From positions 150,997-214,996 of the forward strand of contig JAQGDQ010000395.1 in NCBI GenBank assembly GCA_030141605.1: DNA of 64,000 nt, written 5' to 3'. The translations under genes were made by a program, and so were the position numbers. Shown here piece by piece: positions 34,856 to 51,959 of the stretch. Origin of the DNA: Tubiluchus corallicola (Eukaryota; Animalia; Priapulida). Numbering within the stretch: position 1 is the stretch's first letter; the number at the start of each line of letters is the position of its first letter. Under the pieces are notes generated by a model. The model saw only the letters and a list, made by a program, of their open reading frames with translations, ran no database searches and was not told the DNA's origin.

Positions 34856-37039
34856 TTAAACGTTTTTAAGTGGTTATGCGGCTTTTGCTTTAAGCAAAGA
34901 TAAATAGTCATTTAGAAACAATGGTCGCTTAAATCACGTCGCCAATGCTAGACTGCACACATAAAAAGGTATGTTCTTTCCATTCAGAACATCAAGACCT
35001 GCCAAATTCTTGTTCACATCGAAGTCACAGTGCTAACGTTATTTCAATTTTAGTAGACAAAGGAAGAAAAACAGCTCTAGAAGCGGCAGTAGTAGCCACT
35101 CGTGAAGCTTTATAAAGTTTTTCGTACCTGTATAAGCATAAATAACGAAAAACAATAAAAAGAATGGTTGAATCTACACATTCAGCAAAAACTGCATGGA
35201 GAAAATACCACGAATTTCTGCCCGCAAAGAGAAAGTGAAACAAAAATATTTCACTGCAGCAGGATTTGTTTAAGAAAGCAATCTTCCAGCCGCCTTACTT
35301 TAAAACTATTTAAACTTGTGCAAGATTGAATTGAGCAGACAAAGGAGTCCTTGGCGAACGCCGTCTTGAGTCTGACAGAGAGTTTCGTCTCGCTGAGCTG
35401 TTCAAACAATTGGTGAGGATAGATAACGTTAAATCACGCACACGATTTCCCAAGTTATTACTTAACTATTTGACTTACTACTCATTCAGTGGGTCCATAA
35501 CACACGCTTACTTGTCTGTTAATCGGTTCGTCCGACTGCAACTCGTCGGGCAGGTGCCCTGAAATGAAGACGAGACGACAGCAGACCAGTAATGACTGAT
35601 TTTTGGTCAAGAGGTCAGCATCTAATGATATCAGCCCTGCGACAATCGTTAACCTGCCTGACTTTTTCAGGTGTTTTGCACGAGTACAAATCTAATGTGG
35701 ATTGAGTCTACGCTGGTTGTTACTCTGAGCTGAGTTGTGACATGATAGCAGATATCTTCATGTTTCTCAGATACGTACATTGCTAATGCAATTCATGTAA
35801 AATTGCTATTTATGGCTTTTAAAAGAAAAACGTTGCAGACTTTTTCACAACGACATAGTTATTGTTGCAGGTACAAATGTTTTGGTCCATTACCCCTTCC
35901 AAAGGTAATATATGCATTAGAAGCCACAATATATTAGACTGTAGTTCAACAAGCTAGACTACTTTTTCTACTCTGACATTGCATAGGTGGAACTTGTTAT
36001 GTACACACGTCTCTGTTACATTTAAAATTTGATTTATAATTATACTGCTGCCTTTTACTGACATTCTGGCTTTTTCTCGACTCAATATTGGACCAACAAT
36101 GTATGTATGCATTTTAGCTTTTTAGTGTAACGTAGTAATCTGTAGCACTTATTTTCTAGCACTTATTTCAGTAGTTTTGTAGAGGTAGTAATTGTAGACT
36201 ACAGAAAATTTGAACTTTTTGCAGAATAAACTAACAATGGGAACACAACTTTGGTTTGAGCGTATACATTACAGTTATCAATGTACAGGGTAGGGCAAAA
36301 CTTGTGGCTTACTCTATTGATCAAATATTCATCTGCCAAAAAACAGATACAAAATGTCACAAATTTTTGCATGCCCACAGGACAGTGCACAAAAACTTAA
36401 TTTGGAGTTTTTTTTGTATACAAGCATAAATAAAAAATCATACTTTCTAAATTTGCGTTATAGTGTCATCGATTTTTTTGTATCAATGAAAGGCTTTATC
36501 TATATAGTTGCTATAATATCGTTGCCAAATGTTACCAAACACCTATGCTATTGCCTAAACAGGCTAATTCTCAAAATTGCCCTCACGTATATTGTTCTCA
36601 TAAAATTCGAGTTCAAAAAACGCCTACAAACTATAAAGGCAAAAATTATTGGTCAGATATTTTTCGTCTACTCACTTGACAATTCATTAGCAACAGCGGA
36701 AATCAATACACCGGACGTATTATAGCCGGCGGTTGTTTAACGTTTGAAATGCAGTTTCAACTTCGTTTGAAAGTCAAGAGGCAGCAACGAATGGAAGTCG
36801 CCACGTTTTATGTACAACAAAACAGTAAGTTGAGAACATTAAACGAATTTTGTGAGCAAAACGCACGGCAACAATGAATATTAACGAATATAAACCGCGC
36901 ATGCACAGAAATAAAAGTTCATCGCATTTTACTTCGAAACAATAACTGATGCATCAACAGATATAATTGATACATTAACAGGGTGGTTTGCATGAGGAGG
37001 AGAAACTGCGAACGGAGAATGATTGTCACTATCTGTTAA

Positions 37040-37118
37040 TGATGAGATGATGATGATGACGATGGCGATGACGGTGATGATGATGATGACGCTGCTGCTG
37101 CTGCTGATGATGATGACG

Positions 37119-37150
<32 letters not shown>

Positions 37151-37241
37151 GATAACGATGAGGATGACGATGATGATGATGACGGCGATGACAGTGATGA
37201 TGATGATGACGCTACTGCTGCTGCTGCTGATGATGATGATG

Positions 37242-37311
<70 letters not shown>

Positions 37312-37515
37312 GGATGATATGATGATGATGACGATAACGATGAGGATGACGATGATGATGATATGATGATGATGAGATGAAAAAAAAAAAAAAGCGATGA
37401 CGATAATGATGATGATGACGATGATGATGCTGATGATGATGACGACGACGACGACGACGATGATGACGACGACGACGGCGACGGTGACGACGTTGATGAT
37501 GGATAATGATGGTAA
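37040..37515. repeat. (GAT/GAC/GCT)n compound microsatellite
   Basis: Directly visible. Confidence 0.95.
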
Positions 37516-38080
37516 TGAGAAGGAGGGGAGGAGTGGAAGGAAGGAGCACGATGGTGGCAATGGCAATGATCTTGACTTGGCAACAACATCGATGAAGATG
37601 ACATTGACAGTGACGCTGATAACATTATTGTTGTCATTCGTTATTATCTCTTACGCATAATACGTTGACCTGCAATATTACAAGCCTCCCCTCTGAATTT
37701 CTCCTGCCATCGTTATGATCATCATTGAAACTAAATTACTTTTCGTCTTCAAGCTCAACATCACTTAGACGTTTAGGCGTTGTGTTGCGGGATTTGGCTG
37801 ACAATGAACGATTGAGTACAGCGCGCGTACAGCTGCTGCTGCTGCTGCTTCATCAGGACCACAGTCCATTTGGCTCTAAGCGGGTGATCTTCGGGGATTA
37901 CGTCCTTGATGAAGACAGATGGGACGTTGCGACTTTGCAAAAATACAAACCGAGCATCAGGATCAGCACTACGAGTCCGTCAGGAGCCATGAACTTGATA
38001 AAGATGGATAACAAGGAGAGCTAAGTTGTGTAGTTTAGAATAAAATGGTTTCATGATCCCACTAACAATTAGTATCCATC

Positions 38081-38493
38081 CATGGGAAATATGAAAATTT
38101 GAAACGTAATAGAATAAGTTATATTATTAACTATTAATGATCATGACAATGTTAAGCTCTGACATGGGAAATATGAAAATTTGAAAGGTAATAGAATAAG
38201 TTATATTATTAACTATTAATGATCATGACAATGTTACGCTATGCCATGGCAAATATGAAAATTTGAAATGTAATAGAATAAGTTATATTATTAACTATTA
38301 ATGATCATGACAATGTTAAGCTATGCCATGGGAAATATGAAAATATGAAGCGTAATAGAATAAGTTATATTATTAACTATTAATGATCATGACAATGTTA
38401 AGCTATGCCATGGCAAATATGAAAATTTGAGACGTAATAGAGTAAGTTATATTATTAACTATTAATGATCATGACAATGTTAAGCTATGTCAT
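38081..38493. repeat. Minisatellite, 82-bp unit x5
   Basis: Unit CATGGGAAATATGAAAATTTGAAACGTAATAGAATAAGTTATATTATTAACTATTAATGATCATGACAATGTTAAGCTATGC. Confidence 0.95.
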
Positions 38494-38498
38494 AGATT

Positions 38499-38970
38499 TG
38501 TAATGTGGTATAAGGAAGCCCAGATCAAAATTAGATAAAGGTGTAATAGGTTAAAGGAATTTTTCAATCAATTGTGTACTTGTTGCATCAAAGCTATAGT
38601 AAAGAGAACCTGTTAAAATATGCTAAATGTCAAATCACTGTGCTAAGAAGAGTATTCCTGAAGCCAAGCCAAATAAGTGAAACTTAAGGAGTGGTGTCGT
38701 CACTAGAGTTGACCCACTTCTCAGAGCGCACGCAGCTCATATATAGGCCGTGACACCAGCTAGCAGGAGAGCTTGGTCACACTTCACACTTACATGCAGG
38801 ACGTCTCTTGTAGATCAGGGGCCTTGGCATTGCTATCCATTTATTATATTTATCGTGATGTTATTTAATAAATATGTTATTTCGCAAACAAAGTCTTGAT
38901 AGCTTTGCCATTACTCAAACGTTCATAAACAGCTACACACAGCTCACACACGTACTGCCACTATACAACA
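38499..38970 (+). mobile_element. Solo LTR (472 bp), probably Gypsy-type
   Basis: TGTAATG...TACAACA termini, 4-bp TSD GATT (38495-38498, 38971-38974), TATATAGG at about 38740, AATAAA at about 38867. Confidence 0.6.
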
Positions 38971-39307
38971 GATTTAACAATTTTACTGCTATATTTAACC
39001 CTTTTAGTCCCAAATTATTTTTTTAATAAGAAATATTGGTTCTTTTCTTCAATATGTCCATTTTGTTTACACATAATAATTATTTTTTTCTACCTGTGCC
39101 CGCGTGCTAAATATAGCCTGTATCCCACGGGATTCAATGGTTGCTAAACATGATAAAAAGCAAATGCTTTATATTTGGAAATCTGAAGTTTATTCAATAC
39201 ATTCAATAAAGTCCTGGAATTCTTTGTTATGTTCAAAAAAAATAAAGTCCGACTTTTTTAAAAACACAACAAAAGCAAAAAATGTGCTTCATTTTGCAAC
39301 TGCTGAT

Positions 39308-39735
39308 TGTAACGGCAATATGCATAACGACACCTATGTATTGGAAGGTGCTGCCCTCTACGAGTGAGGAGGAAAGGACAGGAGGGGAACAATGGTGGTC
39401 GTGTTTTTTGATCACAGCAATGTTTTTGTCGTTATTGTGTTACATTTAATAACATCGTTTAGTCATAACCGAATTTTGCACCTTGAGAAATTTTAAATCT
39501 TGACGAAGAGCCAACGATGTGAGTTACATCAATTTAAGTAATTTAATTAAGTTGTGAATTCAATCTCTCAAGTTTGAGAAAGTACTTTGCCAATAAGTTG
39601 ACTTCTTTGTAATTACTGAGCTTCAGTTTATCATTTTATTCATTTTCTTACTTGTTAATGTTCTTTTTATTATTCTGTTTAGAATAAACGACTTTGGAGC
39701 ATGAATCAAATAGTGAAGGCTTTCTGTTCACAACA
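39308..39735 (+). repeat. 5' LTR (428 bp)
   Basis: Matches 46954-47380 apart from about 4 differences; AATAAA at 39683. Confidence 0.98.
39519..39682 (+). other. Predicted GT-AG intron inside the LTR (164 nt; second copy 47165-47327)
   Basis: Donor GAT|GTGAGT; pyrimidine tract TTCTTTTTATTATTCTGTTTAG| acceptor directly before AATAAA. Splicing is predicted, not observed. Confidence 0.7.
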
Positions 39736-39753
39736 GTTTATTATCGGCTCTTC
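39736..39753 (+). promoter_or_regulatory. Non-tRNA primer-binding site candidate GTTTATTATCGGCTCTTC
   Basis: Occupies the PBS position, lacks TGG, and is complementary to the predicted spliced LTR junction (see findings). Confidence 0.65.
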
Positions 39754-41051
39754 CACCATGGCTGTAGTACACTTCAATATTCTATCATTATTTGCGAATA
39801 AATCTATTTGTTATGCCAGTGTTACGAGAAACAGTATTATAGTCGACGAAGAGGCCAGATACCAGAGAACCTGGTGGCATAATTTTGGACAATAGATCAT
39901 TGCCTGAAAAGACAATAATCGTCAGTAAAAAGCTGTCTAAGCCTTGAAAATTACTCTTCCAGCAACATTTTACAGGCAGTCCTAGTAACCTGCTTCACTG
40001 TCCAGACGAACAGCCAATCAGCATCTTACACACCGGTGCGACGTAGTAAATGTAGTGAATGCCGTACAGCGAGCAACCAATCAATATCGAACACAAGCCT
40101 GTGACGCAGGCGACCTTGCAGAGGTCAGGAAGAAACGTACTCTGGGCGAACCTGACTCCCAGTGAACCTTCATCGAGCTACAGCGCACGCGATTGTCTTC
40201 GAATGATATACAGCTTCAACTAAGGAGCCCTGGGAACTAGTAACATGAACCGCAACAGATACGGCGAATGTAAACAGACCTGCTGGAATCCAGCCAAGTA
40301 GTAAACTCCCACGCTGCCGTGCATCAGCTGATCTAATCGAAGCAAGTTAAAGATATGGTACTTATTGTGTACAGTTTATTGAAGTTCGAAAATATGATAT
40401 TATGCAATGTTTGCGTTGTGTCAAATGTTTTCAGTGAACAACTCTGAATCGACTGCTCATTTTGACAAAATTTACACCGTGCTGTACCTGCTTAAAAAAT
40501 TCGAAAATCTACTAAGTTACCCAACATAATCTACAATGCGTAATCAAGCATTATCCTAAGCCTGTGAAAGCTCAACAGAAAGCATGGTTGAATGTTGAAC
40601 TAATTTGCAATATGGGGTTTAATTTAATAATTACGTTTTCTTTAATCGGTATAACATTAATACATGGTAAGTGAACTGCTGCTATACCAAGCCACGATTT
40701 ATGTTAAAGTGTGAGATCTGTGGTAAAGTTCTTGTCTACATATTAAGGCCATAGGTTTGCTGATACACGGTGTCTGTATGTATGTATGTTTACCGGCACG
40801 TAGAATCCGGGTATTTAATGACAGTTTGAATAATTTTGGTGAAACTTAGTATTTATGCCTCATATTTAAGCGTCTGATAAGTTTTAAGTACAAATAGCAA
40901 CTATAGCTTTAGAATGATACATATACATTTAAGTACAATAGGATTGTAATTTTAATGCTTATGTAGTGTGTATCATATAGCTTATGTTAATGTTGCTTGG
41001 TAACAAAGCAGAATGAGCAGGTTTTAAGTGCACAACGTCAACAGACAAAAT

Positions 41052-41933
41052 ATGGAAAAGGATCTCTTCAAGCCAAAAGCTGATCTCTCAGCCGAGGCAA
41101 TTGGCTTCGAAAAGTCAGTTGAACAAGGCGACAAGGAGCAAACATTAGCGGGTGACGATTGCCCAGCATATTTACAGGAATGCAAAAAAAGACTAAGTAC
41201 GCAGCAGGGTCGATTAACAAAAAAGATAAATTACTTGATGAAAAATCTACACGAATGGAAGCAAGATGAGCTCCTTTTAAAGCAAGCTGAATTAGAAAAT
41301 ATCGTTACAGACTACAAAAATTTCTTTGAAGATTGTTACGCAGCTGTTAGGGAATGTAATGGAACCCCTGATGAGATTGCTAAGATGCGAGAGGGATATA
41401 AATTTGTCATGGGAAACGTTAATGAAATGCACGCAAAAATAAATTCTTGTCTAAAACCCATCCAGGATGAACACGACCAGTCACATAGTAAAGACAACCA
41501 TTCCATTGCTGGGAGTAGCGAAAAGCTCAGCTATAAAAGCATAAGCAGTGTTGCCAGTGCACGGGCCATGGTAGCAGCAAAAAGAGCCGCTTTACAAGCA
41601 AAGGCATCCATCATGGAAAAGATGAGAAACCTTGAGCTTTGTGAATATCAGAGAAGAGCAAAGGCAGAAAAGGAGCAGCGATTGTATCAAATGAAAATGA
41701 GCGAATTGGAAGAACAAGCTGAAATTAAAATGCTGGAAGCTGAAGAAAGGGTGCTCGCCAAGTTTGAAGTCGATGAGAAAGTAGAAGAAGAAGAAAAGAA
41801 GGAACTCCCATCTTTGCTTGCATATAAAAGGGATGAGACAAAGCGGTGGGTTGAAATGTGTGAAGAAGCAGTGAGACAGCCAAATCATTCATCTCAAGGA
41901 AGTGCACCAATCTCAACACGATGTTGTGGTTGA
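41052..41933 (+). CDS. gag: BEL/Pao Gag N-terminal region (separated from the rest by a frameshift)
   Basis: ORF from first ATG 41052 (track start 41028 is GTG); helical, coiled-coil-like SSVASARAMVAAKRAALQAKA segment typical of BEL Gag N-termini; overlaps the downstream ORF. Confidence 0.8.
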   Translation: MEKDLFKPKADLSAEAIGFEKSVEQGDKEQTLAGDDCPAYLQECKKRLSTQQGRLTKKINYLMKNLHEWKQDELLLKQAELENIVTDYKNFFEDCYAAVRECNGTPDEIAKMREGYKFVMGNVNEMHAKINSCLKPIQDEHDQSHSKDNHSIAGSSEKLSYKSISSVASARAMVAAKRAALQAKASIMEKMRNLELCEYQRRAKAEKEQRLYQMKMSELEEQAEIKMLEAEERVLAKFEVDEKVEEEEKKELPSLLAYKRDETKRWVEMCEEAVRQPNHSSQGSAPISTRCCG

Positions 41934-44900
41934 CAATAGATGTGACGATGTATGTCATGCTCACAGCGAAGGAAACAAAACACACACAGGAGAAATAAGT
42001 CGGCAAATAAATTCTGAAAGTGCAAGCTTGCCTAAGGTGGAGATGATGTATTTTGATGGAGACCCATTAAAGTTTCATCTGTTTATGAAGACTTTTGAAC
42101 ATGCAGTAGAGAGAGTTTCTGTAGATAGTCATGCCAATCTTCTGCGCTTACTACTTTATTGTACAGGAAGAGCAAGAAAGGTGGTGGAAAGCTGCTTGCT
42201 CATGCCTCCTAATGAGGCCTACGCAAAGGCGAAGAAGATGCTTTATGAGCGGTTTGGGAATTCTTACAACATAGTTGAATCTTGGCTAACACAGATTAGA
42301 GAAACGAAGGCTGTTAAGGGCCGAGAAGAATTAATGCATTTTGCAGATGACTTGAGAATGGCTCAAGGAATACTGGCCAGTATTAACAAAAGAGAAGAAA
42401 TAAATAACCAAACAAATCTTTTGTGTATACTTGAGAAACTCCCAATTTATCTCCAAACAAGGTGGAAGACAGAGGCATATAAAATTAGAATGAGCCAAGA
42501 AAGGAGTCCAACGATTGATGATGTAGTTCATTTTGTGGAAACAGCAGCTTTAGAGGCAAATGATCCAGTTTTTGGGAATTTAGGATATATCGACCGAGAA
42601 AGAAAGGAAACCCAGAAACTCACAACAAGAAAGGATGCTAAAGCAAGTTACCAAACAAGTTTTTTATCTAAAATAGCAGGCGAATCGAAGAGATCTACGT
42701 GTAGCATTTGCACTGGTGAACACTTTATAACTGAATGTGCAGACTTTAATGCCATAAAGCCTGAAGAAAGACTGGAGCTAGCCAGAGAGAAGAGACTTTG
42801 CTTTAAATGTTTAAAGCCCAATCATAGCAGCTATGAGTGTCGTATGAGCAAAAGATGCAATGTCTGTCAAAGAAGCCATTCCACTTTCTTACACCTGAGT
42901 AAATTTAAGCAAGGCAGGCAGGATGATGAAGATAGCGATATGAGAGAAGCTAGCAGCAAGTGTTCTGTCCAAAATGGTTATGTTGAAAGATATACAGTGC
43001 GCAAAAGGATTATTTTACCCGTTGTAAAGGTTCTTGTACAATCTCAAAAACAAAGAATGCCACTCGAGACTCTGGCTTTCTTGGATTCAGGTAGCACAAA
43101 TACATTTTGCACTGAGGAGCTAGCCGCTAAATTGGGCGTAGATGGAAAGGATGTTGCCTTATCACTGACTACTTTGGAAAGGGAAAATAGCGAATTTACA
43201 GCCAAGGTGGTGAGTTTGCAAGTGATGAGCATGGAAAAAGATGAATGCATAACGCTTCCTGAAGTGTACACCAGACCTTCGCTAAGATTAAAGGGAGAAA
43301 CTCTGCCAGAATTGAAAGACCTAAAAAAATGGCCACACTTGCAGGACATACCATTGACCTCTGGCAGTTTTGGAGAACCTGAAGTGGGGCTTTTGATTGG
43401 TCAGGATGTGCCTATCGCGATGATTCCATTAGAGGTCAGAACAGGGCCACGAGGAGCTCCTTGGGCATCCAGGACTATACTAGGGTGGGCTCTTAATGGG
43501 CCAATAGGGTACACAAGCAGCAAAGCAATCATCAGTAACTATGTCCAAGCCACTGCTGATCTTGACAGCATTGTCGCCCAGTTTTGGCAGATGGAAATGT
43601 GTGAAGACGAAAATCATTATTCCAAAGAAGATGTCAAGGTGATCAAATTGTGGGAGGATTCAGTAACCCTAACTGAGGATAATCACTATCAATTGCCTAT
43701 ACCATTCCGAAGTGAGAATCCTGAGCTTCCAAACAATTTACCTGTGGTACAGTCTATGCTGCAGGGGCTCAAGAACAAGTTACAAAGGGACAATGCATTG
43801 CTAGAGAAGTATACTGCAGAAATCTCAAATATGCTGAATAAGGGTTATGCTGAGGAAATAAATGCCAAAGGTGTTAATGGAAGACCTGGAAAGATATGGT
43901 ATTTGCCCCATTTTGCAGTCAGAAATACAAACAAACCAGATAAAACGAGAATCGTCTTTAATTGTGCAGTTCAATTCGCAGGTACTACTCTAAATAGGAA
44001 CGTTATGCAGGGTCCTGTTTTAACAAATAAACTGATCGGTGTTTTGCTTAGATTTAGAGAAAACCAAATAGCTTTGATGGCTGATATTGAATGCATGTTT
44101 CACCAAGTGAAGGTGCCTGCAGAGGATCGCGATGTCCTTAGATTTTTATGGTGGGAAAATGGTTGTTTAAACACGGAACCAAAGGTCTACAGAATGACTG
44201 TTCACACATTCGGTGGAATATGGTGTCCAAGTGTTGCAGCCTTTGCACTCCAAAGCGTTGCAAAGCATAACCGGCATTTGTATGATGAAAACATAATTCA
44301 GACACTGCTGAAAGACTTCTATGTTGACGATTACCTAACCTCAATTGTAAATGAAGAGAAAGCCAAGCACATGCGTCAAAAACTGACTGATCTATTGGCT
44401 CGAGGTGGCTTTCGTTTAACTAAGTGGTGCAGCAACAGTAGAAGTGTCCTTGAGTTCATCCCAGAAGAGGAGCGGGGCAAAGGTGTTAAGAATCTGGATC
44501 TAGAAGCACATACTTTGCCAGTAGAAAGGGCCTTAGGAATTTTCTGGGACATGGAAATTGATCAGTTCAAAATCCATGTAAACCAAAGACAAAAACCATT
44601 GACTCGCCGTGGCCTACTAAGTGTGGTGTCATCAGTTTATGATCCTGCAGGCATAATTTCTCCCTTTGTTCTACGTGCCAAGCTTATGTTCCAGGAAGAA
44701 ACCCGCCTAAGAAAGGCATGGGATGAACCCCTGGAAGAGCACACTGCCAGAAAATGGAAAGTTTGGCAAGAAGAGCTTATGACACTGGAAAACATGAAGG
44801 TAGCTCGTTGCTTGAAACCAGAGCATTTTGGGACCGTAAATAACACTCAATTGCATCATTTTAGTGATGCATCAGAAGTTGCCTTTGGAACAGTGTCCTA

Positions 44901-46896
44901 CGTGCGATTCGAGAACAACGATGGAAAAGTACATGTCTCCTTCATCTTGGGCAAATCACGCTTGGCACCTATGAGGGGTATGACAATTCCCAGACTGGAG
45001 CTTTCTGCAGCCATGCTATCAGCTAGAGTAGATCACATGTTACGACAGGAATTTAACATGCACATTGATGAATCCATATTCTGGACGGACAGCTCAATAG
45101 TATTAGGCTACTTGAATAATGAAGTTGCAAGGTATAAAACCTTTGTTGCCAATCGTTTGGCTGTCATTCAGGAACTAACTTCACCACAACAATGGCATCA
45201 CCTACCAGGAGCAGACAATCCAGCAGATGATGCAACAAGGGGAATTGCAGCATTAGATCTGGTGAAGGAAAGCAGGTGGATAAATGGCCCCACATTTCTG
45301 AAAGGCAAGCGAGAGCAATGGCCAAAGATCGGTGATAGTATCAAAGGCAAAGATGTCTCAGATGATTCTGAAATTAAGAAAAGTCCTATGGTGGTCTACA
45401 CGTCTAAAGCAGTAGAAAAGGATGATAATGTCATCGACAAGTTGTGTGAGCATTATTCAAATCTGCATCGGCTAAAAAGATGTGTAGCTTATCTCCTACG
45501 TCTGAAACGATTGTTGAGAGACAAAGTACTTAAGAGAGTCCGTACTATGTCAAAGCACGCTGCCCTTTCTTTGAAGGAACTAATGGAGGCTGAGGAAGAA
45601 ATCATTAGACATGTGCAGTACATACACTTCAAAGAAGAGCTCACGGGACAGAATGTACTCAAAACCAGTCATTTGTATCAATTGGACCCTCAGAAATCAG
45701 ATAAAGGCATATTGGTAGTTGGAGGCAGACTAGCCAAAGCTCCTTTAGCTGAACAAGCTAAGCACCCAATAATACTGCCAAAAGACCATGTTTTTTCTCG
45801 CCTAGTTGTCCGACACTACCATGAGGAAAACTGCCATGCTGGATGCAATTACACTATGTCTGTAGTCAGAGGCAAGTTTTGGATCATTGGACTGAGAACT
45901 ATCGCAAGAAAGGTTATAAAGGACTGTCGCAGGTGCAGACATTTGTATGCACCCACGCTGGGCCAAAAGATGGCTGACTTACCCAGCGATAGGGTTTCAA
46001 GAGATTCAGTATTCTCAGTGGGGGTAGATTGTTTTGGGCCCTTTTGGGTAAAGAGAGGGCGCACATCTGCTAAGAGATATGGATGTTTATTTACGTGCAT
46101 GGCAGTGCGATCTATTCATCTAGAAGTTCTTTTTGACATGACCACTGATAGCTTTGTTAATGCCCTCTTCCGATTTATTAGCAGGAGGGGAAAGCCAAAT
46201 GTGATCAGGTCGGACCATGGGACAAACATAGTTGGAGCAGACAGGGAGCTTCAAAAAGCTATGTTAGGCTGGAACCATCAGAACATCACTAGTCAGCTAC
46301 ATCAACGTAACATAGAGTGGGAGTACAATCCACCAGCTGCTTCACACATGGGAGGTTGTTGGGAAAGGATGATAAGATCAGTCAGAAGGATATTGGTCCA
46401 CCTTTTAGATGGACAGACCCTTGATGATGAAGGATTATCCACTGTATTCTGTTTAACGGAGGCAATAATTAATGGAAGGCCGTTAACGCCGATTTCAGAT
46501 GATCCAAAGGATGCAGAACCATTGACACCAAATCATCTGCTTTTAGCTCACAATGCTGCCTCACTGCCACAAGGAGTGTTTTCTGACTCTGATCGTTACA
46601 GACGCAACTGGCGACACATTCAACACTTAGTGAATGTCTTTTGGAGCAGATGGACCAGAGAGTACTTGTCATCCTTACAGCAACGGAACAAGTGGACTGT
46701 GCCAAAAAGAAATCTCAAAGTCAATGATGTGGTGCTTGTGAAGGAGACCACACCCAGAAATCTGTGGCCACTGGGCAAGGTAGAGCAAGTTCATGTAGGC
46801 GAAGATGGGTTAGTGAGAAGTGCTACACTTAAAGTGAAAGCTGGATTTTTAGAGCGCCCCATTCACAAGCTCTGTCTTCTAGAGGGTGCCGACTAA
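41902..46896 (+). CDS. pol: BEL/Pao Gag-Pol polyprotein (Gag core, 3 zinc knuckles, aspartic protease, RT, RNase H, integrase)
   Basis: 1664 aa; FDGDPLKF Gag core; CSICTGEH..C, CFKCLKPNH....C, CNVCQRSH....H; LDSGS; FYVDD; HHFSDASE and RLEL; HYH...H..CRRC; VDCFGP / SDHGTN / WERM (DDE). Confidence 0.97.
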   Translation: MHQSQHDVVVDNRCDDVCHAHSEGNKTHTGEISRQINSESASLPKVEMMYFDGDPLKFHLFMKTFEHAVERVSVDSHANLLRLLLYCTGRARKVVESCLLMPPNEAYAKAKKMLYERFGNSYNIVESWLTQIRETKAVKGREELMHFADDLRMAQGILASINKREEINNQTNLLCILEKLPIYLQTRWKTEAYKIRMSQERSPTIDDVVHFVETAALEANDPVFGNLGYIDRERKETQKLTTRKDAKASYQTSFLSKIAGESKRSTCSICTGEHFITECADFNAIKPEERLELAREKRLCFKCLKPNHSSYECRMSKRCNVCQRSHSTFLHLSKFKQGRQDDEDSDMREASSKCSVQNGYVERYTVRKRIILPVVKVLVQSQKQRMPLETLAFLDSGSTNTFCTEELAAKLGVDGKDVALSLTTLERENSEFTAKVVSLQVMSMEKDECITLPEVYTRPSLRLKGETLPELKDLKKWPHLQDIPLTSGSFGEPEVGLLIGQDVPIAMIPLEVRTGPRGAPWASRTILGWALNGPIGYTSSKAIISNYVQATADLDSIVAQFWQMEMCEDENHYSKEDVKVIKLWEDSVTLTEDNHYQLPIPFRSENPELPNNLPVVQSMLQGLKNKLQRDNALLEKYTAEISNMLNKGYAEEINAKGVNGRPGKIWYLPHFAVRNTNKPDKTRIVFNCAVQFAGTTLNRNVMQGPVLTNKLIGVLLRFRENQIALMADIECMFHQVKVPAEDRDVLRFLWWENGCLNTEPKVYRMTVHTFGGIWCPSVAAFALQSVAKHNRHLYDENIIQTLLKDFYVDDYLTSIVNEEKAKHMRQKLTDLLARGGFRLTKWCSNSRSVLEFIPEEERGKGVKNLDLEAHTLPVERALGIFWDMEIDQFKIHVNQRQKPLTRRGLLSVVSSVYDPAGIISPFVLRAKLMFQEETRLRKAWDEPLEEHTARKWKVWQEELMTLENMKVARCLKPEHFGTVNNTQLHHFSDASEVAFGTVSYVRFENNDGKVHVSFILGKSRLAPMRGMTIPRLELSAAMLSARVDHMLRQEFNMHIDESIFWTDSSIVLGYLNNEVARYKTFVANRLAVIQELTSPQQWHHLPGADNPADDATRGIAALDLVKESRWINGPTFLKGKREQWPKIGDSIKGKDVSDDSEIKKSPMVVYTSKAVEKDDNVIDKLCEHYSNLHRLKRCVAYLLRLKRLLRDKVLKRVRTMSKHAALSLKELMEAEEEIIRHVQYIHFKEELTGQNVLKTSHLYQLDPQKSDKGILVVGGRLAKAPLAEQAKHPIILPKDHVFSRLVVRHYHEENCHAGCNYTMSVVRGKFWIIGLRTIARKVIKDCRRCRHLYAPTLGQKMADLPSDRVSRDSVFSVGVDCFGPFWVKRGRTSAKRYGCLFTCMAVRSIHLEVLFDMTTDSFVNALFRFISRRGKPNVIRSDHGTNIVGADRELQKAMLGWNHQNITSQLHQRNIEWEYNPPAASHMGGCWERMIRSVRRILVHLLDGQTLDDEGLSTVFCLTEAIINGRPLTPISDDPKDAEPLTPNHLLLAHNAASLPQGVFSDSDRYRRNWRHIQHLVNVFWSRWTREYLSSLQQRNKWTVPKRNLKVNDVVLVKETTPRNLWPLGKVEQVHVGEDGLVRSATLKVKAGFLERPIHKLCLLEGAD

Positions 46897-46943
46897 CTGC
46901 TTACTGGAAATTTTTGGTAAAATGCTTTGTGACTTCGCATTTT

Positions 46944-46953
46944 AGAGGGGGAG
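46944..46953 (+). promoter_or_regulatory. Polypurine tract
   Basis: AGAGGGGGAG immediately before the 3' LTR. Confidence 0.92.
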
Positions 46954-47380
46954 TGTAACGGCAATATGCATAACGACACCTATGTATTGGAAGGTGCTGC
47001 CCTCTACGAGTGAGGAGGAAAGGACAGGAGGGGAACAATGGTGGTCGTGTTTTTTTATCACAGCAATGTTTTTGTCGTTATTGTGTTACATTTAATAACA
47101 TCGTTTAGTCATAACCGAATTTTGTACCTTGAGAAATTTTAAATCTTGACGAAGAGCCAACGATGTGAGTTACATCAATTTAAGTAATTTAATTAAGTTG
47201 TGAATTCAATCTCTCAAGTTTGAGAAAGTTTTTGCCAATAAGTTGACTTCTTTGTAATTACTGAGCTTCAGTTTATCATTTTATTCATTTTCTTACTTGT
47301 TAATGTTCTTTTTATTATTCTGTTTAGAATAAACGACTTTGGAGCATGAATCAAATAGTGAAGGCTTTCTGTTCACAACA
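46954..47380 (+). repeat. 3' LTR (427 bp)
   Basis: Direct repeat of 39308-39735. Confidence 0.98.
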
Positions 47381-47804
47381 CTGATAATTTTTTAAAGTAT
47401 TTAAGACATTTAGTATGCATGCTATACTGATCTGTACAAAGTCGTCTCTAAACTACTGTACCTTGCGCAGTTTTTTATGCTATGTAGATTTTCTAGTTTG
47501 CCATTTTATCACCATTTTTAGTCTATTGTTATTGGCTTAAATCAAAATAACTATTAACAGATCAAATAACTCTCAGTTTTAAAATTTTATTAATTTTAAA
47601 GGCAGAAAATATTCTTGTATCCCATGGGATACAACGGGTATGAAAGGGTTAAGAATAAAATGCTATAATTCGCATTTCATATTGTGCATTATTTTGTTTG
47701 TTATCAGTTTGAATTCCTATAAATCTTGTTGTTTGTTAATCTAATCCTATTATCTTTAGTCTTACTGCATCAGCCGCGTTCATGACTTGTTTGAGGTGTT
47801 TAAC

Positions 47805-49329: not shown

Positions 49330-51580
49330 TTTACCTGCAGAATTCCTTTTACGCCTATCTTATACCACCTGACTAATATAAGTTTAAGCAGAAGTCTGCA
49401 TCCTCTCATTCCACTGTCTTTACCTGCAGAATTCTTTTACACCTATCTTATACCACCTGACTAATATAAGTGTAAGGAAAGGTCTGCATCCTCTCATTCC
49501 ACTGTCTTTACCTGCAGAATTCCTTTTACATTTATCTTATACCACCTGACTAATATAAGTGTAAGCAGAAGTCTGCATCTTCTCATTCCACTGTCTTTAC
49601 CTGCAGAATTCCTTTTACACCTATCTTATACCACCTGACTAATATAAGTTTAAGCAAAAGTCTGCATCCTCTCATTCCACTGTCTTTACCTGCAGAATTC
49701 CTTTTACGTTTACCTTATACCACCTGACGAATATAAGTTTAAGCAAAAGTCTGCATCCTCTCATTCCACTGTCTTTACCTGCAGAATTCCTTTTACGACT
49801 ATCTTATACCACCTGACTAATATAAGTGTAAGCAAAAGTCTGCATCCTCTCATTCCACTGTCTTTACCTGCAGAATTCCTTTTACGCCTATCTTATACCA
49901 CCTGACTAATATAAGTGTAAGCAAAAGTCTGCATCCTCTCATTCCACTGTCTTTACCTGCAGAATTCCTTTTACGCCTATCTTATACCACCTGACTAATA
50001 TAAGTGTAAGCAAAAGTCTGCATCCTCTCATTCCACTGTCTTTACCTGCAGAATTCCTTTTACGCCTATCTTATACCACCTGACTAATATAAGTGTAAGC
50101 AAAAGTCTGCATCCTCTCATTCCACTGTCTTTACCTGCAGAATTCCTTTTACGCCTATCTTATACCACCTGACTAATATAAGTGTAAGCAAAAGTCTGCA
50201 TCCTCTCATTCCACTGTCTTTACCTGCAGAATTCCTTTTACGCCTATCTTATACCACCTGACTAATATAAGTGTAAGCAAAAGTCTGCATCCTCTCATTC
50301 CACTGTCTTTACCTGCAGAATTCCTTTTACGCCTATCTTATACCACCTGACTAATATAAGTGTAAGCAAAAGTCTGCATCCTCTCATTCCACTGTCTTTA
50401 CCTGCAGAATTCCTTTTACGCCTATCTTATACCACCTGACTAATATAAGTGTAAGCAAAAGTCTGCATCCTCTCATTGCACTGTCTTTACCTGCAGAATT
50501 CCTTTTACGCCTATCTTATACCACCTGACTAATATAAGTGTAAGGAAAGGTCTGCATCCTCTCATTCCTCTGTCTTTATCTACAGAATTCTTTGTACGCC
50601 TATCTTATACCACCTGACTAAATATAAGTGTAAGCAAAAGTCTGCATCCTCTCATTCCACTGTCTTTACCTGCAGAATTCCTTTTACGCCTATCTTATAC
50701 CACCTGACTAATATAAGTGTAAGCAAAAGTCTGCATCCTCTCATTCCGCTGTCTTTACCTGCAGAATTCCTTTTACGACTATCTTATACCACCTGACTAA
50801 TATAAGTGTAAGGAAAGGTCTGCATCCTCTCATTCCTCTGTCTTTATCTACAGAATTCTTTGTACGCCTATCTTATACCACCTGACTAATATATAAGTGT
50901 AAGCAAAAGTCTGCATCCTCTCATTCCACTGTCTTTACCTGCAGAATTCCTTTTACGACTGTCTTATACCACTTGACTAATATAAGTGTAAGCAAAAGTC
51001 TGCATCCTCTCATTCCTCTGTCTTTACCTGCAGAATTCCTTTTACGACTATCTTATACCACCTGACTAATATAAGTGTAAGGAAAGGTCTGCATCCTCTC
51101 ATTCCTCTGTCTTTATCTACAGAATTCTTTGTACGCCTATCTTATACCACCTGACTAATATATAAGTGTAAGCAAAAGTCTGCATCCTCTCATTCCACTG
51201 TCTTTACCTGCAGAATTCCTTTTACGACTGTCTTATACCACTTGACTAATATAAGTGTAAGCAAAAGTCTGCATCCTCTCATTCCTCTGTCTTTACCTGC
51301 AGAATTCCTTTTACGACTATCTTATACCACCTGACTAATATAAGTGTAAGGAAAGGTCTGCATCCTCTCATTCCTCTGTCTTTATCTACAGAATTCTTTT
51401 TACGCTTATCTTATACCAACTGACTAATATAAGTTTAAGCAAAGGTCTGCGTCCTCTCATTCCACTGTCTTTACCTACAGAATTCCGTTTACGCTTATCT
51501 TATACCACTTGACTAATATACAAGTGTAAGCAGAAGTCTCATTCCACTGTCTTTATCTGCAGAATTCTTTTTACGCTTAT
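49330..51580. repeat. Satellite, 89-bp unit x about 25
   Basis: Unit TTTACCTGCAGAATTCCTTTTACGCCTATCTTATACCACCTGACTAATATAAGTGTAAGCAAAAGTCTGCATCCTCTCATTCCACTGTC. Confidence 0.97.
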
Positions 51581-51959
51581 ATTTCACCGCCTTCAAAGCG
51601 TTTGACGTGTCTTGTCTACCCGAGGCCATCATGTGGTCCACGTGTAGGTAAAAATAATAAATTGTGCACAAGGCGCCATTAATTATTTTGTTAGGTTTGT
51701 TAAGTAGGCTAAAAGAACGAAAGATATGTTGGATCATTTATCAATCACGCTCGGCTGGTACATAAAACTGTCGTCAATACTTGAGCTTAATGTTAACTCG
51801 TGCATATATAAAATTTATTACAATCCTGGAGACTTGAAGTAATTTTACTAACTTCAAGAGTTGCCATGTTGACCAGGTACTAATTGTTTCTGTCTGAGTT
51901 TAGCGGGATCTGAAATGATTACTAAATTGTGGGCATATTGATCGCATTTTGCTAGTATA

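Follow-up and report, generated by a model that had tools for sequence, protein, structure and literature searches.

Predicted splice-assembled self-priming in a BEL/Pao-type retrotransposon of Tubiluchus corallicola and related families

A BEL/Pao-type LTR retrotransposon of the priapulid Tubiluchus corallicola likely primes its own reverse transcription in a Tf1-like manner, using a piece of its own 5′ RNA that is predicted to be assembled by splicing; BEL/Pao elements are described as tRNA-primed, and their replication is assumed to proceed in that way (PMC8742986). The comparison of related families points further, to a broad animal BEL/Pao lineage that has probably dropped tRNA priming for self-priming and in most families of which the host spliceosome would build the primer at an exon-exon junction of the LTR. 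Splicing of the 5′ LTR would thereby license reverse transcription, and the unspliced 3′ LTR would pass the intron on. As judged from sequence comparison, the match between primer site and LTR is conserved by covariation across distant families. If this reading is true, a third LTR superfamily joins those with self-priming, and the priming reaction comes to include a step of host RNA processing. It would also explain primer sites that annotation tools cannot assign, provide hosts and elements with a new control point at which tissue-specific splicing could switch retrotransposition on or off, and offer a natural system with an intron that is carried through reverse transcription and repeatedly lost.

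Structure of the element and its primer site

The element occupies positions 39308-47380 (8073 bp) on the forward strand of the analysed stretch of 64,000 nt, referred to below as the window, and is flanked by the target-site duplication CTGAT (39303..39307 on the left and 47381..47385 on the right). The 5′ LTR (39308..39735, 428 bp) has TG...CA ends, and the 3′ LTR (46954..47380, 427 bp) is 99.07% identical to it, the 4 differences being 3 substitutions and 1 indel. A leader of 1.3 kb (39754..41027) is followed by open frame 1 (41028..41933, 301 aa), probably the N-terminal part of Gag, for which neither a Pfam match nor a significant match to the relative P0004 was found. Open frame 2 (41875..46896, 1673 aa) contains the Pfam domains DUF1759, RVT_1, Peptidase_A17 (Pao), Integrase_H2C2, and DUF5641, in that order, and the polyprotein is, by this domain content, of BEL/Pao type. 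A polypurine tract (46944..46953) adjoins the 3′ LTR, which holds a copy of the predicted intron (47165-47327) and has its only AATAAA at 47328. The best 120 protein matches to the element show 47-55% identity, and the named ones among them, from echinoderms, molluscs, and other marine invertebrates, are uncharacterised.

Frames 1 and 2 lie in different phases and overlap by 59 nt (41875-41933), and many relatives have a single frame of ~2000 aa. The overlap is either a break in this copy or a programmed shift, and the copy may be inactive, its coding region being in two overlapping frames. As for the leader, it has five short ATG frames, namely a 45-codon frame opened by a strong-context ATG 4 nt past the primer site and four more, as well as a second AATAAA (39797) and a donor-like GTAAGT (40667) that possibly marks a second intron. 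On either side of the element lie tandem arrays (37007-37524, 38080-38575, and 49330-51592; units of about 9, 82, and 89 nt), dispersed repeats are abundant in the remainder of the window, and 10 other long frames in the window have no Pfam match above the cut-off.

No TGG, the tRNA-type primer start, occurs in the 18 bases that follow the 5′ LTR. The putative primer-binding site that they form (39736..39753) is complementary to a predicted exon junction of the LTR. The end of predicted exon 1 (39505..39518) would form the 5′ part of the primer and pairs with 39743-39753 around a 3-nt bulge, and the start of predicted exon 2 (39683..39689), which contains the only AATAAA of the LTR, would supply the seven bases at the 3′ end. 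U2-type introns have a GTRAG donor, a pyrimidine tract, and a YAG acceptor. The predicted spliceosomal intron between the two exon parts (39519..39682, 164 nt) fits this consensus with a GTGAGT donor, 14 pyrimidines among the 17 nt before the acceptor, and a TAG acceptor, and has a branch-like motif 28 nt upstream of the acceptor. When joined, 39515-39518 and 39683-39689 are the exact complement of 39736-39746 (11 bases). The LTR allows 332 GT-AG joins, of which this one yields the longest match that starts on the first post-LTR base (11 bases vs 9 for the next best), and the longest anchored match of the unspliced LTR is only 7 bases. No window out of 300 control windows inside the element reached 11 bases (mean 6.1, maximum 10).

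The initial annotation had reported the coordinates of the LTR, donor, acceptor, and 3′ copy (47165, 47327) along with the lack of a TGG, all of which hold on re-check, and the count of joins bears out its claim that the 11-nt complement exists only across the 39519/39682 join. It had also described an 18-bp duplex with one 3-nt bulge. The further 7 pairs on which this depends, 39505-39511 with 39747-39753, are indeed present; a second bulge register (8 bp, 3-nt bulge, and 10 bp) is, however, also possible and is preferred by the folding program. At all 8 folding settings (four starts combined with two ends), the seven exon-2 pairs have P 0.99 in the spliced leader vs 0.00 without splicing. 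The fold of the spliced leader also contains a predicted stem-loop inside the primer helix, within 39690..39735 (46 nt), the predicted template of minus-strand strong-stop DNA; its role would be that given under the mechanism below. Upstream of the donor, the LTR of the T. corallicola element has no match to TATA[AT]A.

Regarding run X1, which is of unrecorded type and whose contigs drop rare variants, the 39518/39683 joint was found in neither of two comparisons, one with 348 and one with 70 aligned contigs. The joined, intron-removed form is also absent from the window and from all 68 relative loci among the matches listed. All 10 LTR substitutions listed for the X1 contigs are intronic, and the paired stretches have none; since the list omits differences within ~31 nt of contig ends, this distribution is given no weight, and neither is the summed contig depth, which is higher over the LTR. 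A second, diverged contig over 39708-39999 (depth 21 vs 71) has the same LTR end and primer site, its first listed difference being at 39755, and represents a related subfamily in the same run.

Covariation and predicted introns in related families

Metagenome contigs were searched with a protein alignment of 46 sequences, that of the T. corallicola element and 45 of its best 120 matches, and at least 68 loci with relatives were found; two scans of viral contigs revealed no relative. From these loci 24 relative families were scored, which are 44-54% identical to the T. corallicola element over the RT region and make 25 families together with it. The unscored 44 of the at least 68 loci comprise 23 without a 5′ region, 7 that repeat a scored family, and 14 with an incomplete LTR or primer site. 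For each family, the 25 nt after the 5′ LTR were searched for the longest exact complement to the LTR with a start at offset 0-5 from the LTR end, the LTR being read either as it stands or joined at any GT-AG pair. The pass mark of at least 10 nt at an offset of 0-5 is the self-primer criterion given in the available part of PMC6317226, with the joins added here. The LTR end follows from two compared LTR copies in 10 of the 25 families, and for L013 its position, 10 nt inside an alignment that drifts, was chosen by eye. In the other 15 families the end was put at a CA by eye after the match had been seen, so they support the covariation but do not test it.

Self-complementarity of 10-16 nt was found in 24 of the 25 families, across a splice-type junction in 18 and contiguously in 6 intron-less ones. 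The remaining family, L006, has a match of 12 nt that misses the pass mark because it lies at offset 6, one base too far. A TGG is absent from the first 8 post-LTR nucleotides of all 25 families. The initial annotation had put the 3′ end of the primer exactly on the first post-LTR base, which is correct for the T. corallicola element but fails as a general rule, since the helix starts there in only 5 of the 24 passing families and the other 19 have a spacer of 2-5 nt.

According to the match lengths, primer sites fit the LTRs of their own families (average 11.5 nt) better than those of other families (average 6.7 nt over 600 cross-family pairs, 32 of which reach 10 nt and 18 of which reach 11). 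The initial annotation had proposed as a test that, in related families, the sequence after the LTR should covary with the splice junction inside it; this decisive comparative prediction is borne out, and its interpretation is thereby supported. In the 10 families with two LTR copies, the observed match sum was reached by none of 200,000 label shuffles; without L005 and L026, which are close relatives of L004, only the true order (1 of 40,320) reaches the observed sum. The eleven-base primer sites are distinct in 22 of 24 cases and have T at position 2 in all 24, a loose common motif. As for the 15 families with eye-placed ends, the entire 5′ region had been scanned blind, with a restricted list of donors, and the same site ranked first in 6 of their 10 intron families and tied first in one more. 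In the unscored L047, whose donor is off the contig, the exon-2 side of the acceptor, read by eye, has a mismatch to the apparent primer site.

Several further features of individual families were observed. At 82-133, L001, which is 53% identical to the T. corallicola element over RT, begins its exon 2 with the identical seven bases, AATAAA included; its exon 1 ends differently, and its primer site differs accordingly, giving a match of 16 nt. The U5 of L005, L015, L045, and L056 contains a copy of the first 8-9 nt of the primer site, 44-76 nt before the LTR end; the summed match of this kind over 18 families was reached by 39 of 20,000 shuffles, and the T. corallicola element has no such copy (3 nt). 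This U5 copy could be an alternative partner for the primer. The LTR apparently ends in TA, not CA, in L013 (near 91) and L034 (at 911).

The junctions selected by the match resemble introns. With any GT allowed, 16 of the 18 intron families have a GTRAG donor at their best join (GTAAGT in 13), against a background of 33 among the 805 GTs of these LTRs, as do 8 of the 8 intron families with an LTR end from two copies. Non-GTRAG donors occur in L025 and L066, and the GTRAG donor of L039 ties with another GT. Acceptors are TAG or CAG in 17 of the 18, the 17 nt before them contain 9-15 pyrimidines, and the predicted introns, where measurable, span 71-478 nt. In all 18 intron families the duplex energy is more favourable for the joined form, although this is not independent evidence, the junctions having been chosen by match. 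TATA-like motifs lie 49-171 nt upstream in 6 of the 25 families. The poly(A) hexamer, for which the standard motif was used, is found 12-105 nt beyond the acceptor in 11 of the 18 intron families and inside the paired stretch in 3; occlusion of the poly(A) signal is thus ruled out as the general purpose of the helix.

In 7 of the 25 families, the 6 that pass and L006, the LTR is intron-less and the primer-like sequence contiguous, and the intron is thus not the requirement of the mechanism that the initial annotation had taken it for. These families are scattered on the RT-RNase H tree (25 rows, no outgroup and no named reference elements), in which well-supported branches force at least 5 changes. 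L039, with an intron, and L007, with none, are sisters (support 99/95); their sequences can be aligned through the junction, where 9 bases on the exon-2 side are identical. L007, L034, and L067 lack the intron in either LTR copy, and L067 also has a target duplication, which means that these three at least are DNA; L006, L046, L051, and L059 could in principle be RNA-derived contigs. On the sequences compared, the joined primer appears as the constant unit kept by the lineages, and the intron as a common but dispensable way of building it. On this tree without an outgroup the changes may be gains or losses; the reading preferred here is repeated loss, which would come about by copying of spliced RNA.

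Proposed mechanism and rival explanations

In the proposed mechanism, transcription would start upstream of 39505, the spliceosome would join 39518 to 39683, and the joined RNA would pair with 39736-39753, enclosing the U5 stem-loop. A cut near 39689/39690, made by the RNase H of the element on analogy with Tf1, would free a 3′-OH. Strong-stop DNA would then copy 39735-39690 (46 nt) and jump to the 3′ end, where it would land in the short interval that separates the end of the primer from the poly(A) site in the 3′ LTR. The 3′ LTR copy would mostly stay unspliced, the minus strand would run through the 3′ intron copy, and both progeny LTRs would inherit its state, with occasional copying of fully spliced RNA giving rise to intron-less lineages. 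Intron retention needs the 3′ copy to be mostly unspliced, yet the poly(A) hexamer lies beyond the acceptor in 11 of 18 families, which we count against the proposal. A primer copied back into the primer site would hold ~11 bases perfectly matched, and in the T. corallicola element the same helix would hide the only AATAAA of the LTR in the 5′ copy. The primer is probably a longer 5′ fragment rather than the extreme 5′ end, as suggested by the pairing, which runs 7-8 bp further upstream past the bulge, and by the position of the TATA-like motifs in the 6 families mentioned above.

Several other readings of the same helix were weighed. It may depend on splicing and yet serve a regulatory or structural function, such as hiding of the 5′ poly(A) signal, packaging, dimerisation, or translation control, with priming by another RNA or route. 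The T. corallicola helix, which covers the only AATAAA of its LTR, favours this reading; we nevertheless regard it as unlikely, as the hexamer is paired in only 3 of the 18 intron families, the helix begins 0-5 nt after the LTR end, where the 3′ end of a primer must sit, and a tRNA-type site occurs in none of the 25 families. Self-priming might also do without exon joining, if the unspliced RNA loops the intron out or if the first splicing step alone frees the 3′-OH of exon 1. The 5′ part of the helix, formed by 39505-39512 and 39746-39753, is indeed predicted even in unspliced RNA (P 0.91-1.00), but there the probability of the seven pairs adjoining the LTR end is 0.00. Moreover, the intron-less families have the same helix without splice sites at that place, and their 3′-OH is therefore not made by the spliceosome, and priming from exon 1 leaves the exon-2 match of 4-7 nt in 18 of 18 families unexplained. 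This makes self-priming without exon joining very improbable.

Hardly more credible, and if anything slightly less so, is a host tRNA half, tRNA fragment, or other small RNA as the primer, the LTR match being secondary. The description of Belpaoviridae as tRNA-primed (PMC8742986) and the half-tRNA priming known in Ty1/copia lineages, according to the available part of PMC6317226, speak for it, as does the loose motif common to the primer sites (T at position 2 in 24 of 24). However, the 22 distinct sites in 24 families each follow their own LTR and not a fixed host sequence. In addition, a tRNA gene search of the 64-kb window found none, and an Rfam search of 39250-40100 gave no meaningful match (one at E 4.1). 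The match could also be a chance product of A+T-rich sequence, for which speak the control windows that now and then reach 11-15 nt with any GT and AG and the 18 of 600 cross-family pairs that reach 11 nt; the cross-family permutation results and the enrichment of the donor consensus contradict this reading, which reduces its probability to a negligible level. Self-priming by a splice-assembled piece of the 5′ RNA is accordingly the explanation that we prefer for the T. corallicola element.

Comparison with known self-priming and BEL/Pao elements

A U5 stem-loop is reported to lie beside the primer duplex in the Tf1/sushi group. According to the available parts of PMC7175516 and PMC4600332, Tf1 and Tf2 of Schizosaccharomyces pombe, Tj1, and the Tf1/sushi group of Ty3/gypsy elements use no tRNA primer; ~11 bases of their own LTR RNA are complementary to the site just after the 5′ LTR, and a cut frees the primer. 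Bases 1-11 of Tf1 anneal to the primer site, and RNase H cleavage separates base 11 from base 12 (PMC7175516, same part). About half of the Tf1 cDNA carries a copied primer site, as stated in the available part of PMC11042837, which offers a way to keep site and primer matched. The T. corallicola element resembles this group in the lack of a tRNA-type primer site and in the complement of ~11 bases from its own LTR just after the 5′ LTR. Unlike the Tf1/sushi elements with their Ty3/gypsy polyprotein, however, it has Pao-type domains, the primer is split by a predicted intron in 18 of the 25 families, and in the T. corallicola element pairing continues upstream past the bulge. A contiguous Tf1-type match of at least 10 nt at 0-5 nt is found in the 6 passing intron-less relatives, whereas the T. 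corallicola LTR has 7 nt, and 11 only across the predicted junction. As proposed here, the element works like Tf1 but is not a member of the Tf1/sushi group.

Regarding Tf2, the available part of PMC5341516 reports that an alternative transcription start decides whether the RNA contains the self-primer and can be reverse-transcribed. The form of the RNA would thus set the presence of the self-primer in both cases, by start-site choice in Tf2 and by splicing in the present proposal. In plants, self-priming has been predicted for the lineages Tcn1 (gypsy) and TAR/Houba/Osr-1 (copia) from an LTR match of at least 10 bp located 0-5 bp after the 5′ LTR (PMC6317226, available part). The match criterion is the same as ours, and self-priming has there been proposed in more than one superfamily; the matches were, however, sought as contiguous BLAST hits, and an intron-split primer would be missed. 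Among the known or predicted self-primers in the available parts of these sources (Tf1/sushi, Tcn1, and TAR), none belongs to BEL/Pao, and none is intron-split. Literature searches, with subscription journals, Repbase reports, and supplements outside their scope, found no description of self-priming or LTR introns in BEL/Pao elements, and the available parts of PMC554778, PMC3118150, PMC6238403, PMC8556966, PMC8220671, and PMC3286476 have no passage on either subject.

The ICTV profile of Belpaoviridae (PMC8742986) gives LTRs of 0.2-1.2 kb, a genome of 4.2-10 kb, a polypurine tract of ~10 nt, and Gag and Pol in one frame or two overlapping frames with RT before integrase; replication is described there as poorly understood, and the primer site is given as 18 nt that pair with the 3′ end of tRNA-Arg or tRNA-Gly. 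The T. corallicola element agrees with this profile in its LTRs (428/427 bp), total length (8073 bp), domain content and order, two overlapping frames, and polypurine tract (46944-46953). It departs from it in the tRNA-Arg/tRNA-Gly primer site, since no TGG start is present in any of the 25 families. For this reason the element is filed as BEL/Pao-type by its polyprotein and not as a typical tRNA-primed member.
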